Part shown: positions 11,362 to 17,301 of the stretch, in pieces
Numbering within the stretch: position 1 is the stretch's first letter
How the letters are laid out: the number at the start of each line of letters is the position of its first letter
Sequence record: OZ035730.1
Reading direction: 5' to 3' (one strand)
Length of the DNA: 40,216 nucleotides
From: Kayfunavirus CLBP1
Program-made: the position numbers and the translations under genes
The notes under the pieces: model-generated
The model's database searches: none
Seen by the model: only the letters and a program-made list of their open reading frames with translations
Told to the model about the DNA's origin: nothing

Positions 11362-11718
11362 ATGAAGGGTAAGCACTTAGGCTATCGACGCAAGGACGGC
11401 TACTGGGTTATAAGCACAACAAAGGGTCAACTCCTTGCTCACAGGGTAGTCTGGGAACTAACTCATGGTCCGATACCTGAAGGAATGGTGATTGACCATA
11501 TAAACCGCGACCCTTCTGATAACCGCATTGAGAACTTACGATGTGTAACCCAGGCAGTGAACCTAACAAACGTTCCCGTCCGTAGCCACTGCAAGTCTGG
11601 TGAGAAGTATGTGAACTTTGAGCCAAGGACTGGTAGATGGCAACTTCGGATAAAGCGTAAGTCATATGGTACGTTCGACACCATAGCTGAGGCGGTAGCC
11701 TTGAGAGATTCATTATGA
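11362..11718 (+). CDS. HNH homing endonuclease with AP2-like DNA-binding tail (free-standing)
   Basis: MKGKHLGYRRKDGYWVIS...LAHRVVWELTHGPIPEGMVIDHINRDPSDNRIENLRCVTQAVN...YVNFEPRTGRWQLRIKRKSYGTFDTIAEAVALRD; HNH core plus AP2-type motif. Upstream part of track ORF 11104 overlaps the ligase and is not counted. Confidence 0.75.
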   Translation: MKGKHLGYRRKDGYWVISTTKGQLLAHRVVWELTHGPIPEGMVIDHINRDPSDNRIENLRCVTQAVNLTNVPVRSHCKSGEKYVNFEPRTGRWQLRIKRKSYGTFDTIAEAVALRDSL

Positions 11719-11722
11719 CGTC

Positions 11723-11756
11723 AACCCAGTGGTCTTAGGACTGCTGGGTTTCTTTG
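11723..11756 (+). terminator. Hairpin plus U-tract (intrinsic terminator-like)
   Basis: CCCAGUGGUC (11725-11734) pairs with GACUGCUGGG (11739-11748), 10 bp with two G.U, loop UUAG, followed by UUUCUUUG. Confidence 0.5.
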
Positions 11757-11777
11757 CGTCTAGGCCACCAGCTAGAC

Positions 11778-11800
11778 CCTAAGCTATCACTATAGGACAA
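11778..11800 (+). promoter_or_regulatory. Phage RNAP promoter (phi1.5/1.6-like)
   Basis: CCTAAGCTATCACTATAGGACAA; +1 G at 11795; one mismatch to consensus at about -13. Confidence 0.7.
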
Positions 11801-11824
11801 CCATCAACTCAAAGGAGAGACTCA

Positions 11825-12085
11825 ATGTCTAAGAACTTAATGTTTAATCGCTTTACGTCTACCTTCCACCTGTCCAACAATCCGTTCGCCTGCATCAAGC
11901 GCAACGAGAAGGTAGGGTTCTTCGGCAAGGTCGTGAAGCTGTCACCTACAGTCTACGCGCTGTTGACTCCGGGCAAGATTGAAGAGGCACGCCAGAAGAA
12001 AGACTCAGCTGTGCCTGTGGTCTACACTAAGTGGCCTCGCCTGCGTCTGGTCGTAGAGTTCGCGAAGGAGGCCTACAATGACTGA
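11825..12085 (+). CDS. Hypothetical protein (gp1.6-like by position)
   Basis: 86 aa; SD AAAGGAGAGA upstream; assignment by synteny only. Confidence 0.55.
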   Translation: MSKNLMFNRFTSTFHLSNNPFACIKRNEKVGFFGKVVKLSPTVYALLTPGKIEEARQKKDSAVPVVYTKWPRLRLVVEFAKEAYND

Positions 12086-12497
12086 GCAACAGGTAGCTAT
12101 TAAACTGATTGAGCTTAACCCACAAGCCCCGAACGACCAGTGCTGTCCCGGTACTACCTGTCCGGGTATTTCCTGCGATGAATGCCCATTCGATGAAGGA
12201 GACCTGACGTTTGGCGACATTCGAAAGCAGTACGCTCCCAAGCATACGGTAGAAGACGATGGTGTTCGCAAGCCATCTCACTATCAGGTCTTTGATGGCG
12301 TGGAATCCATTGAGATTATCGCTCGGTCCATGACTGTCAGCGAGTTCCGTGGTTTCTGCATGGGTAACGTCCTTAAGTATCGACTCCGAGCTGGTAAGAA
12401 GTCCGAGCTGGCTACTTTGGAGAAGGACCTAAACAAAGCAGCCTTCTATCAGGAGCTGTTCGACCTTCATAAAGGTAAGTGCTATGACTCCAAGTAG
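12078..12497 (+). CDS. Nucleotide kinase (T7 gp1.7-like)
   Basis: C-terminal VRKPSHYQVFDGVESIEIIARSMTVSEFRGFCMGNVLKYRLRAGKKSELATLEKDLNKAAFYQELFDLHKGKCY matches remembered T7 gp1.7; Cys-rich N-terminal segment. Confidence 0.8.
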   Translation: MTEQQVAIKLIELNPQAPNDQCCPGTTCPGISCDECPFDEGDLTFGDIRKQYAPKHTVEDDGVRKPSHYQVFDGVESIEIIARSMTVSEFRGFCMGNVLKYRLRAGKKSELATLEKDLNKAAFYQELFDLHKGKCYDSK

Positions 12498-12575
12498 CTG
12501 GTGCTTTAGACAGTGGGCCTCAACCGGGAATGTGGACTACCTGTCCATGTACCATATGTGGAAGGAGAAAGGACT

Positions 12576-12734
12576 ATGAGCATTGAAGAAAAGAAATACA
12601 TCGTGGAGCTTGAGGGTCGCATTCAGTCCTTCGAGGTTCCGGTGTACGCAAAGTCTCTTGAAGAGGCTACCCTGAAGTCCCAAGAGTATGAGGATGCAGG
12701 GTTTGTGGTAGGACGGATTCGTCCTGAGACCTAA
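12576..12734 (+). CDS. Host RNA polymerase inhibitor (T7 gp2-like)
   Basis: SD GGAAGGAG upstream of ATG 12576; [33 protein letters not shown] matches remembered T7 Gp2. Track ORF start 12513 is upstream of the likely start. Confidence 0.75.
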
Positions 12735-14858: not shown

Positions 14859-14876
14859 ACTATCACCTTAGGGATG
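14854..14876 (+). promoter_or_regulatory. Phage RNAP promoter, variant core (phi4-like)
   Basis: CCTAAACTATCACCTTAGGGATG; two changes in the -4 to -2 region; +1 G at 14871. Confidence 0.55.
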
Positions 14877-14926
14877 GGACCATGAGTCCTGTCCCTTTGT
14901 TCGCATTTGTGATTAAGGAGTGACCA

Positions 14927-16627
14927 ATGTCATACGATGACCAAGACGACGAGAGTGTCTTTCTGTATCACACCCAGTGTCCAGACTGTGGGTCCTCGGA
15001 TGCCAATGGTGTTTACTCAGACGGACACATGTACTGCTTCGCCTGTGACCCTTCAGTCGCATGGAAGAAAGGAGACATGGAGTTGACCGAGGGATACACA
15101 CCCTCAGGAGGTAGAAAGCAAGTGAGCAATCTGTTAACGTTCAGTGAGAACGCTGGACGATATGTCCCGCTACCAGCCCGCAGTCTCAGCATGGAGATAT
15201 GCAAGAAGTACAGCTACTGGGTGGGTAACATGGGTGGCAAGATGGTTCAGGTAGCTGATTATTACGACAGGTCCGGGACCAAGGTAGGGCAGAAAGTCCG
15301 AGACGCTGAGAAGAACTTCACGGCTATAGGTAGCGTCAAGTCTGACATGCTGTTCGGCTCTCAGCTCTGGAACGGTGGTAAGAAGATAGTCATCACCGAG
15401 GGTGAGATAGACGCCCTGTCTGTGGCTCAGGTGCAGGACGGTAAGTATCCAGTGGTATCACTTCCGTTAGGCTCCAAGTCTGCGAAGAAAGCGATGGCTG
15501 CTAACCTTGAGTACCTCGACCAGTTCGAAGAGATTATCCTGATGTTCGACATGGACGAACCGGGTCGTCAGGCCATTGAGGATGCAGCTCCAGTCTTACC
15601 AGCAGGTAGGGTCAAGGTAGCGTTCATCAACGGGTACAAAGACGCCAACGCTGCGCTTCAGGCCAAGGACTTCAAGGCCATCACTGATGCAATCTGGAAC
15701 GCTAAACCTTTCGTCCCGGCTGGCGTGGTATCAGCGGCAAGTCTGAAGGACCGAACACGAGAGGCAATGCTTAAGGCAGAGACTGAAGGTCTCATGTTCT
15801 CGTCATGCACAACACTCAACGCGATGACCCTAGGTGCGCGAGCTGGTGAGCTTATCATGGTGACTTCTGGGTCGGGCATGGGTAAGTCTACCTTCGTCCG
15901 TCAGCTCCTCTTAGAGTGGGGCAGAGGCGGTAAGCGTGTAGGCATGGCTATGCTTGAAGAGGCTGTAGAGGAAACAGTTCAGGACCTTATGGGTCTGGAC
16001 AATAACGTCCGTCTACGCCAGAGCAAGGAACTGAAGCAAGCCATCTTAGAGGATGGGCGGTTCGACGAATGGTACGACAAGCTGTTCGGAGACGATAAGT
16101 TCCACCTGTACGATTCATTCGCAGAGTCAGAGGAAGACACCTTGTTCGCTAAGTTAGGCTACATGGTGGACGGCCTTGACTGTGACGTCATACTGCTGGA
16201 CCACATCTCAATCGTTGTGTCTGGCATGGAAGATAACTCAGATGAACGTAAGACCATTGACCGCATCATGACCCGTCTCAAGAAGTTTGCGAAGACGAAG
16301 GGTGTGGTTGTCGTGGTCATATGCCACCTGAAGAACCCAGAGAAAGGTAAATCGCATGAAGAAGGGCGACCTGTTTCAATCACTGACCTACGTGGTTCTG
16401 GTGCTCTACGCCAACTGTCTGATACTATCATCGCACTTGAACGTAACCAGCAAGGTGATACTCCTAACATTGTTCAGCTTCGTCTACTCAAGTGTCGCTT
16501 TACAGGTGATACTGGGGTGGCTGGACACCTTGAGTACAACAAAACGACAGGATGGCTTGAACCGATTAGCTTCACTGGCAGCAGCGGAGAAGAGGATAGC
16601 GGCTCGTGGGAGGATACGGACTTCTAG
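14927..16627 (+). CDS. DNA primase/helicase (T7 gp4-like)
   Basis: 566 aa; zinc-ribbon N-terminus, TOPRIM region, helicase Walker [10 protein letters not shown]-terminal WEDTDF; collinear with remembered T7 gp4A. Confidence 0.97.
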
Positions 16628-16671
16628 GCGTGATATAGCTGATTATAAGAATTTTATGGAGGACACCATTA

Positions 16672-16836
16672 GTGTTAAAGAAACTTAAAGCTCGATACCA
16701 TCGGTTCATGTACAAATGGTGGAGCGAAGAAGCAACCTGCCTGTCGAACATTCTGGGAGACCAAAGGTTCGACTCTAAGGCATGGAAGAAAGCTAACCGG
16801 AAGTTTATGTATCACTTCTTGCGTACAGACTTCTAG
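16672..16836 (+). CDS. Hypothetical small basic protein (54 aa, GTG start)
   Basis: Hand-translated VLKKLKARYHRFMYKWWSEEATCLSNILGDQRFDSKAWKKANRKFMYHFLRTDF; GGAGG 9 nt upstream; non-ATG start. Confidence 0.25.
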   Translation: MLKKLKARYHRFMYKWWSEEATCLSNILGDQRFDSKAWKKANRKFMYHFLRTDF

Positions 16837-16838
16837 GT

Positions 16839-16882
16839 CTAGACTCAAGGTCATTCACATTGAGTGGCCTTTATGATTAGAC
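16839..16882 (+). promoter_or_regulatory. RNase III-type processing hairpin (R4.7-like), copy 3 of 3
   Basis: AAGGUCAUUCA (16847-16857) pairs with UGAGUGGCCUU (16861-16871), loop CAU; compensatory base-pair changes relative to copies 1 and 2. Confidence 0.6.
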
Positions 16883-16899
16883 TAAACGGAGGATTAACC

Positions 16900-17301
16900 A
16901 TGTTTGATTGCATTGAGTGGACCGGGTGTCGAGATAGTTTCGGCTACGGTATGCGAAAGGTCAACGGGAAGGTCCGTAGACTGCATCTGATAGCCTTCGA
17001 GGAGGCGAATGGTCCGATACCAGAGGGAATGGTCGTGAGGCACAAATGCGACAACCCAGCGTGCTACAATCCAGAACACTTGGAGCTGGGGACAAGGGCT
17101 GAGAACAATCACGATAGAGACATTAGAGGTCGAACCGCTAAAGGCGTGCGACATGGAAGCTCTAAGCTTACACCTGAAATAGTACAAGAGGCCAAGGTGC
17201 TTTACGCAGGAGGTGGCTGGACTCACCGCTCCTTAGGTAAGAAGTATGGAGTGGGTCACCGCACACTGGCTAGAGCAATTGGAGGAGAAACATGGACTTA
17301 A
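16900..17301 (+). CDS. HNH endonuclease (free-standing, between primase/helicase and DNA polymerase)
   Basis: ATG 16900 with SD GGAGGA 6 nt upstream; HKCDNPACYNPEHLELGTRAENNHD motif. Track start 16864 lies inside the RNase III hairpin. Confidence 0.75.
   Translation: MFDCIEWTGCRDSFGYGMRKVNGKVRRLHLIAFEEANGPIPEGMVVRHKCDNPACYNPEHLELGTRAENNHDRDIRGRTAKGVRHGSSKLTPEIVQEAKVLYAGGGWTHRSLGKKYGVGHRTLARAIGGETWT

Follow-up and report, generated by a model that had tools for sequence, protein, structure and literature searches.

In phage T4, the homing endonuclease genes (HEGs) of the seg and mob groups are intergenic cassettes that lie beside essential genes, are patchily present among relatives and spread by intronless homing. 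I-HmuI, the intron-encoded HNH endonuclease of Bacillus phage SPO1, nicks one DNA strand. More generally, the clustering of HEGs beside polymerase and other essential genes is established, and HEG-mediated competition between phages has been documented (PMC10448857). The same source cites Magnani et al. 2004 for a family of HNH-AP2 homing endonucleases, which carry an N-terminal HNH and a C-terminal AP2 DNA-binding domain, and covers the “IPA-HNH” HEGs of ICP1. Variable HEG content has been noted repeatedly in T7-like phages (PMC4925675), and in the Kayfunavirus Hafnia phage Ca the stop codon of an HEG overlaps the ATG of the downstream terminase gene, with a spontaneous 397-bp deletion variant of the HEG cassette also described (PMC8861465). 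The present study concerns two free-standing HNH open reading frames (ORFs) in Kayfunavirus CLBP1 (OZ035730.1; the whole stretch of 40,216 nucleotides (nt) is referred to as the window): HEG1, behind the ligase gene, and HEG2, at the start of DNA polymerase gene 5. Comparison with related phages suggests that both are very probably homing endonuclease genes, which as selfish cassettes would pass between K1F-like phages during co-infection.

The region 9400–20100 of the window is 100% identical to Escherichia phage CLB_P1 (KC109329.1; Studiervirinae, Kayfunavirus; window position = KC109329.1 position + 4270), and ~60 K1F-like records span at least 80% of this 10.7-kb stretch at ~90–93% identity. 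Both ORFs are found on the plus (+) strand where an earlier note on this DNA had placed them, HEG1 at 11362–11718 and HEG2 at 16900–17301, and their designation as HNH proteins is borne out by Pfam HNH_3 (PF13392; gathering threshold 24.8 bits), which both match well above threshold (HEG1, E 8.9e-23, 80.1 bits; HEG2, E 1.5e-17, 63.4 bits), and by the HNH families of PHROG (E 1e-43 and 2.5e-29, respectively). The note had presented 11362–17301 as a single span; its ends hold the HEGs, but most of it consists of unrelated intervening genes. The intron-borne HNH protein that it mentioned, encoded at 19387–19782, is likewise an HNH_3 protein, and tblastn searches of the window with these proteins and the T7 HNH proteins detected HNH loci only at 11257–11715, 16900–17298, and 19387–19779. 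In GenBank, HEG1 is labeled gp1.45 (“putative endonuclease, similar to phiYeO3-12 gp1.45; HNH”) and HEG2 is labeled “7.7” (“similar to phage 13a gp7.7”), while Citrobacter phage CR44b has a HEG2 orthologue at the same position, which its record calls “7.7B predicted homing endonuclease” and credits with a predicted helix-turn-helix (HTH). Both genes are already annotated, and the finding is known in kind, because variable HEG content, HNH-AP2 HEGs, and a Kayfunavirus HEG cassette have all been published; a literature search for a paper analyzing these two CLB_P1 genes specifically found none.

The two genes are patchily distributed. With presence counted at ≥97% coverage of the HEG DNA, and with the records that match HEG-plus-flanks queries as denominators, HEG1 occupies its slot in 11 of 168 flank-matching phage records and HEG2 in 12 of 218, that is, each is found in ~5–7% of related records, and CLB_P1 is the sole record with both. 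Occupation of the loci in all relatives, the outcome that the earlier note had named as telling against invasion, is therefore not what is observed. At the polymerase slot, the two flanks run together over ~312 nt in approximately half of the sampled rows, so that the slot is empty in these phages, and K1F and many other relatives have clean, uninterrupted empty sites. Comparison with HEG-less relatives, as the note had proposed, sets the insertion points: behind the ligase gene, alignment reveals ~395 nt of DNA (11328–11722, +) that are absent from K1F and phiYIO1-1 and lie between the ligase stop codon and a conserved stem-loop, and HEG2 sits on the start of gene 5. For each HEG, all carriers have the same junctions. 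Flank changes co-occur with HEG presence at both slots, an association among genomes that are not phylogenetically independent. Patchy presence, identical junctions, and flank changes, together with the deletion scars and purifying selection described below, support the suggestion of independent HEG invasions.

HEG2 (16900–17301, +; 133 amino acids [aa]; a homologue of T7 gp7.7) is located between genes 4.3 and 5, and its junction coincides with the initiation region of the polymerase. In K1F, Vec13, PE3-1, phiHAO1-1, EFA-1, and SR04, the sequence GGAGGATTAACC-ATG-TTT-GAC-CTT-AAG constitutes the ribosome-binding site and start of gene 5. The opening 8 nt of HEG2, ATGTTTGA, are identical to the gene 5 start in these empty-site phages, and the HEG2 ORF opens with the former gene 5 ribosome-binding site and ATG-TTT-GA in CLB_P1 and in seven of the other eight carriers compared; the exception, the divergent Bas105, has a sequence of its own upstream of HEG2 and the start ATG-ATT-GA. 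Specifically, the Shine–Dalgarno sequence GGAGGA at 16888–16893 (+) serves HEG2 here, whereas HEG-less relatives use it for gene 5. The polymerase of CLB_P1 and of each of the other eight carriers restarts at GGAGGAGAAAC-ATG-GAC-TTA-AGT-AAC-GTA-TAT. The replacement Shine–Dalgarno sequence for gene 5, GGAGGAG (17281–17287, +), is contained in the HEG2 3′ end and is conserved in all HEG2-positive phages, and the ATG of the rewritten gene 5 start (17292–17318, +; MDLSNVYGS) overlaps the HEG2 stop by 10 nt. Gene 5 codons 2–8 are rewritten in nine of nine HEG2-positive genomes and in none of six HEG2-negative genomes, the polymerase N terminus being MDLSNVYGSD in the former and MFDLK(S/D)IWGSD in the latter. 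Past codon 8, gene 5 is no more alike among carriers than among non-carriers. The overlap and the deletion variant of Hafnia phage Ca parallel the HEG2/gene 5 overlap and the scars described here. However, unlike the HEGs of T4 and Hafnia phage Ca, HEG2 also captures its neighbor’s own start codon, and those HEGs belong to other nuclease families (GIY-YIG and others in T4) and occupy other loci.

Two further features were observed at the polymerase start. A long conserved stem-loop (16836–16883; −21 kcal/mol, z −3.1) separates gene 4.3 from the ribosome-binding site of HEG2/gene 5; HEG-less relatives have it too, so it belongs to the backbone, possibly as an RNase III-type processing site. In phage GA2A (NC_031943.1), the HEG2 slot is filled by an 873-nt DNA methyltransferase gene (1651–2523), the 3′ end of which overlaps the gene 5 ATG, and thus different accessory cassettes seem to dock at the same point, the polymerase start. 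HEG2 homologues are also found in other settings: one of 73% identity occupies the same slot, one of 45% identity abuts a DNA_pol_A gene on a different podovirus contig, and one of 42% identity adjoins an ERF recombinase gene. Given the GA2A methyltransferase and the HEG that abuts DNA_pol_A elsewhere, the gene 5 start may serve accessory genes more generally as a landing pad.

Comparison with T7 places HEG2 in a known family at a new locus. The earlier note had named HNH genes at T7 3.8 and 5.3 and none at the two positions considered here. T7 gp3.8 is indeed an HNH_3 protein, but Pfam assigns T7 gp5.3 to PDDEXK_5, of the PD-(D/E)XK type (E 1e-10), and the T7 genes with HNH_3 matches are 2.8, 3.8, and 7.7. 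T7 does lack HNH genes at either slot: gp1.4 is a DUF5464 protein, and gp4.7, the product of the unrelated gene that fills in T7 the gene 5-start slot held here by HEG2, has no Pfam match. The possibility that gp4.7 or gp1.4 is a cryptic HNH protein was rejected, as neither shows a Pfam HNH match or similarity to HEG1 or HEG2. The family of HEG2 is nevertheless not missing from T7. HEG2 shares 44% full-length identity with T7 gp7.7 (E 4e-37) and 36% with T7 gp2.8, both of which, like HEG2, combine HNH_3 with CCCH cysteines and a C-terminal HTH; in T7, however, gene 7.7 lies between 7.3 and 8 and gene 2.8 between 2.5 and 3. HEG2 is thus a homologue, not a positional orthologue, of T7 7.7, and the “gp7.7” label masks its placement at the polymerase start.

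The HEG2 protein is laid out as an HNH/His-Me finger with a CCCH zinc site followed by a C-terminal HTH. Among 30 homologues, C4, H48, C50, N52, C55, and H60 are invariant, and N69 is invariant or nearly so. The AlphaFold2 (AF2) model of HEG2 (predicted local distance difference test [pLDDT] score, 88) contains a beta-beta-alpha core and three C-terminal helices, and a Foldseek search with this model returned I-HmuI (1U3E) as the top match (0.99), followed by I-PpoI, Smad MH1, and HTH domains. The HEG2 family profile aligns with 1U3E over positions 19–130, which include the HTH (E 6e-4); an HTH search with the HEG2 tail alone gave no match even at E ≤10. I-HmuI is the best solved match to both HEG1 and HEG2, by profile and by fold, and all three proteins begin with a DNA-contact strand region at the N terminus, continue with an HNH core, and end in a DNA-binding module. 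There are, however, three differences: I-HmuI is intron-encoded, whereas HEG1 and HEG2 are free-standing; the C-terminal module is an HTH in I-HmuI and HEG2 but an AP2-like tail in HEG1; and the CCCH zinc site of HEG2, which resembles those of I-PpoI and Smad MH1, is not present in I-HmuI.

At the post-ligase slot, the ORF assigned to HEG1 in GenBank and in the earlier note (gp1.45; 11362–11718, +; 118 aa; HNH_3 match) is real, but its start is likely wrong. The real start is probably the ATG that lies 105 nt further upstream, at 11257, which would give a full ORF of 153 aa (11257–11718, +) whose first 71 nt fall within the 3′ end of the ligase gene and are read in its +1 frame. A putative Shine–Dalgarno sequence, GGAGGAG (11243–11249, +), is formed by ligase Glu-Glu codons 7 nt ahead of this ATG. 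Among the carriers aligned, the ATG at 11362 is unique to CLB_P1; the other seven have CTG (phiHAO1-1, EclP_26, and PE3-1) or CTA (SR04, EFA-1, CHRF_30111, and PH1061) at this position, with the ORF intact, while an in-frame ATG at the 11257 position, 7 nt past GGAGGAG, is kept in every carrier (as GTG in the SR04 group). Four observations lead us to take 11257 as the start. First, HEG1 has counterparts that overlap the ligase gene in two other phages, phiYeO3-12 gp1.45 (72% amino-acid identity) and the KP32 gene 9 product (67%). The phiYeO3-12 gene occupies the slot directly after ligase gene 1.3, its annotated start is the equivalent of 11257, with an overlap of 71 nt as well, and its ATG is likewise drawn from ligase Asp-Gly codons behind a GGAGGA(A/G) motif; KP32 gene 9 overlaps the ligase gene from an annotated start further upstream, with the equivalent ATG in frame within it. 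Second, the stretch from the ligase stop to 11362 encodes FKVDRTAPSGV, which aligns with an (F/Y)xYDxxSPSGL motif at the N terminus of distant homologues with start codons of their own and no overlap with a ligase gene, and also with I-HmuI residues 13–27. Third, an AlphaFold model of the 153-aa form has a mean pLDDT of 87.9 and is confident over residues 11–153, including 11–35. Fourth, metagenome gene callers also pick forms of 153–170 aa for HEG1 homologues.

Some observations weigh against this assignment. The 11257 ATG and its Shine–Dalgarno sequence also exist in HEG-less K1F, and the ligase motif EETPDG forces both, so that their conservation alone is not proof. In addition, the conserved APSGV codons coincide with a hairpin (GGCTCC-TTCT-GGAGTC, 11340–11355) that is annotated as the early terminator TE in phiYeO3-12, and because of this coincidence RNA and protein constraint are inseparable there. 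The hairpin, located just past the ligase stop, is kept in phiYeO3-12 and KP32, and its 3′ arm is the sole Shine–Dalgarno-like sequence for the ATG at 11362. We considered whether it sequesters the ribosome-binding site of that ATG; its folding energy, however, is not distinguishable from that of shuffled sequences (z −1.5), and the site overlaps the conserved APSGV codons. The idea that ligase and HEG1 are fused by a +1 frameshift at ATT-TAA was dropped, because no stimulatory element is present and the conserved in-frame ATG/GTG with its strong Shine–Dalgarno sequence explains the data.

GenBank thus probably places the start of CLB_P1 gp1.45 105 nt too far downstream. Several related records omit or truncate the gene: an intact HEG1 ORF is unannotated in those of phiHAO1-1 (2007–2360), EFA-1 (2845–3199), and SR04 (2018–2372), and HEG1 is annotated as a 78-aa truncation in those of PE3-1, EclP_26, and CHRF_30111, likely because gene callers met no ATG at the CLB_P1 position.

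Downstream of the HEG1 insert is the conserved stem-loop mentioned above, a 12-bp stem followed by a U-run (11723–11756, +; −19.8 kcal/mol, z −3.6) that resembles the early terminator TE. It is conserved in all aligned relatives and belongs to the backbone common to HEG-less phages, and the EcoDS1 record has a terminator annotated at this position. A phage RNA polymerase promoter, CTATCACTATAGGACA, follows at 11784–11799 (+), downstream of HEG1 and upstream of gene 1.6, as an exact match to a consensus that has 10 sites in the window, where chance would give 0.3. From this arrangement, HEG1 appears as the final gene of the early transcription unit, just ahead of the terminator-like hairpin. 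By slot and by overlap, HEG1 is the positional orthologue of phiYeO3-12 gene 1.45, even though the three phages represent different genera (phiYeO3-12, Teetrevirus; KP32, Przondovirus; CLB_P1, Kayfunavirus) and the DNA downstream of the gene differs, phiYeO3-12 having promoter phi1.5 and gene 1.5 where CLB_P1 has the terminator hairpin and then the 1.6 promoter. A literature search found no biochemical characterization of phiYeO3-12 gp1.45 or the KP32 gene 9 product.

The ligase 3′ end differs according to the state of the slot. Genomes that bear HEG1 or its scar end in ...TEDNPTVKI* (DNA ...ACTGAGGACAATCCTACAGTCAAGATTTAA), whereas clean empty genomes end in ...TEDNPTIKS* (...ACGGAAGATAACCCGACCATTAAGAGCTAA); the two versions differ by a run of synonymous, mostly third-position changes and two amino-acid changes, and the carrier type resembles phiYeO3-12. 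In the alignment, the last 30 nt of the ligase gene (11298–11327, +) form a candidate target/immunity tract. The scarred genomes are those of CR44b (~1925–1975) and Vec13 (~1897–1945), which have no HEG1 but retain ~14 nt of the left end and the last 26 nt of the ORF, remnants that by their sequence are deletion scars of a former TH16-type post-ligase HEG allele. TH16 (MT446393.1) carries at 273–890 a third, much more divergent HNH allele in the post-ligase slot, which shares with HEG1 the ligase-embedded N terminus and the last 12 codons, TIAEAVALRDSL; its middle looks swapped.

In the HEG1 protein, a region for DNA contact at the N terminus is followed by an I-HmuI-like HNH_3 domain and then by a short AP2-like tail. 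Its best relative of solved structure is I-HmuI, 1U3E (single sequence, E 6.5e-4; HEG1 family profile, positions 13–98, E 1e-12), which is also the top Foldseek match to the AF2 model (probability 1.00). D80-H81...N105 are invariant in 26 homologues and align with DH...N of I-HmuI; the catalytic roles of these and the corresponding HEG2 residues are presumed by analogy with I-HmuI. The AP2-like tail described in the earlier note stands at the level of the family profile but not as a Pfam AP2 match to the HEG1 sequence. Specifically, the tail (101–151) of a 26-sequence HEG1 family profile matches the AP2/ERF structures WRI1 (E 4.7e-9), TEM1 (E 7.9e-5), ERF096 (E 1.7e-3), and AtERF1 (E 8e-3), PF00847 and PF13392 occur together in approximately one-third of HEG1 homologues (among the 114 matches listed), and the HEG1 tail aligns column for column with the PF00847-carrying homologues. 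Pfam AP2 (PF00847) matched neither the tail alone nor the 153-aa protein even at E ≤10, and the AP2 match in the Foldseek search of the HEG1 model was weak and not significant; the homology of the tail therefore rests on the sequence profile. HEG1 resembles the HNH-AP2 family in its domain order, but its AP2 is shortened to ~38 residues and, unlike that of the family, falls below Pfam significance alone.

Taken as homing endonucleases, the two enzymes would each nick or cut the HEG-less allele near their own insertion site; HEG1 would likely act where the ligase 3′ end meets the terminator, and HEG2 on the opening codons of gene 5. Recombinational repair off HEG-bearing genomes would then copy in the HEG with a short altered flank, which, being altered, would no longer be cleavable, and inheritance would be biased toward the HEG. 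HEG1 would be translated from the ligase-embedded ATG, with the ligase Glu-Glu codons as ribosome-binding site, and HEG2 from the former polymerase initiation site. The polymerase, with its rewritten N terminus, would be re-initiated from the ribosome-binding site and ATG at the HEG2 3′ end by translational coupling; because HEG2 carries these replacement signals, the essential polymerase would still be made. We tentatively propose, as a joint and distinctly less certain extension, that HEG2 docks on the gene 5 start with a portable initiation region, which also rewrites the opening 7–8 polymerase codons, and that the N terminus of HEG1 is pre-encoded in the ligase gene. In such a scheme, a single HEG2 event could destroy the target site, immunize the genome, and keep the polymerase expressed. 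The first 24 codons of HEG1 would be read in the +1 frame from the conserved end of the ligase gene, and therefore each HEG-less ligase gene would already encode its start and N terminus, which would act as a built-in homology arm.

Two observations weigh against homing itself: no extended co-conversion tracts are detected around HEG2 beyond ~30 nt of flank, and a literature search found no biochemical or genetic evidence for cleavage, target sites, or gene conversion in CLB_P1 or close homologues. A third is that strong purifying selection could also mean a benefit to the phage, not pure selfishness. The pairwise ratio of nonsynonymous to synonymous substitution rates (dN/dS) is 0.047–0.074 for HEG1 and 0.047–0.17 for HEG2, with dS up to ~1.3; the top HEG2 value comes from a near-identical pair with few changes. 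These low ratios indicate that HEG1 and HEG2 are functional genes. The nucleases might thus be kept for marker exclusion, DNA processing, or host DNA breakdown, with homing incidental or lost, a view that would also suit the location of both genes in expressed early/DNA-metabolism transcription units beside essential genes and the documentation elsewhere of HEG-mediated phage competition and HEG clustering near essential genes (PMC10448857). We regard it as improbable, since >90% of close relatives do without HEG1 or HEG2, natural deletion variants exist, and no adjacent partner genes are seen. Moreover, exclusion of a competitor would use the same cleavage as homing, so that the two explanations differ in emphasis more than in mechanism. 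A specific role as terminase-associated HNH proteins (HK97 gp74-like) was rejected, because both HEGs lie away from the terminase genes and are missing from >90% of relatives.

It is very unlikely that the ORFs are inactive relics, either decaying HEG pseudogenes or mis-called reading frames. Such decay might be read from the lack of a canonical HEG1 start at the annotated position in seven of eight carriers and the absence of the gene from the annotation of several records, from the shortened AP2 tail that misses the Pfam threshold, and from an in-frame 33-nt tandem duplication in the HTH-coding part of phiYIO1-1 HEG2 (~8129–8165), which encodes 144 instead of 133 aa. Yet the ORFs are intact in every carrier, dN/dS is ~0.05–0.09 across dS values up to 1.3, the catalytic and zinc-binding residues are all kept, the “missing” HEG1 ATG is explained by the conserved upstream start, and the phiYIO1-1 duplication preserves the frame.

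A mosaic pattern is evident when the HEGs are compared with their surroundings. Genes 4 and 5 around HEG2 are 94–98% identical among relatives in 250-nt windows, whereas HEG2 alleles are 74–89% and HEG1 alleles 79–91% identical. T147P5 has the closest HEG2 (96.7%), yet its gene 5 flanks are among the most distant (91.4%). This mosaic is consistent with cassettes that moved from one background to another, or with diverged alleles that were imported; simple vertical descent does not fit it. A rather unlikely alternative, although the most credible of those considered, is that the HEGs are old residents, descended from one ancient insertion per slot, with the patchiness produced mainly by repeated loss and the flanks homogenized by backbone recombination. 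The exact junctions common to all carriers would be expected from a single founding insertion per slot, loss is proven by the CR44b and Vec13 deletion scars, allele divergence is deep (dS above 1), and the slot and 71-nt overlap recur in the Teetrevirus phiYeO3-12, as does the ligase overlap in the Przondovirus KP32. However, homing too preserves identical junctions, most relatives have clean, scar-free empty sites with a different flank allele, and the HEG alleles are three to four times more diverged than the adjacent DNA, which import from distant donors explains more easily. Old residence is, in any case, compatible with homing and does not exclude it. Thus, spread as mobile cassettes is the reading we favor for both genes.

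Variable HEG content is among the best-known differences between T7-like phages, and the CLB_P1 case is in this respect routine. The additions made here are modest: the probable mis-annotation of the HEG1 start, the takeover of a start codon by HEG2, the deletion scars, and a docking site common to a methyltransferase cassette. CLB_P1 and K1F, with backbones ~92% identical and two extra HEGs in the former, constitute a natural pair for measuring homing and marker exclusion, and this pair is relevant to therapeutic K1F-like phages since the outcomes of phage cocktails and of recombination can both be skewed by HEGs.

HEG content varies at many positions across the genus. Other HNH ORFs are found in PE3-1 (4390–4587, between genes 2.5 and 3) and UKE1 (10162–10443, right after gene 5), and the relative L026 has one (748–1113) in the 3.8 slot, which in the window holds a 71-aa ORF (14643–14858) that the earlier note had called unrelated and that does not encode an HNH protein. 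Gene 5 of the window also contains a group I intron (RF00028; 19295–19892, +) with the third HNH gene (gp5.3, 19387–19782). The RF00028 match scores 35.7 bits against a gathering score of 50 (E 2.3e-7), and at the gathering threshold Rfam returned no RNA family in 9000–21000; the score is probably lowered by the 396-nt HEG ORF inside the intron. The intron and its HEG are 99–100% identical to those of K1F and CHX131, whereas the HEG1 and HEG2 alleles are far more diverged. The intron is absent from 7 of 11 relatives compared, and in EFA-1 and UKE1 the region aligned at only 54–58% identity.

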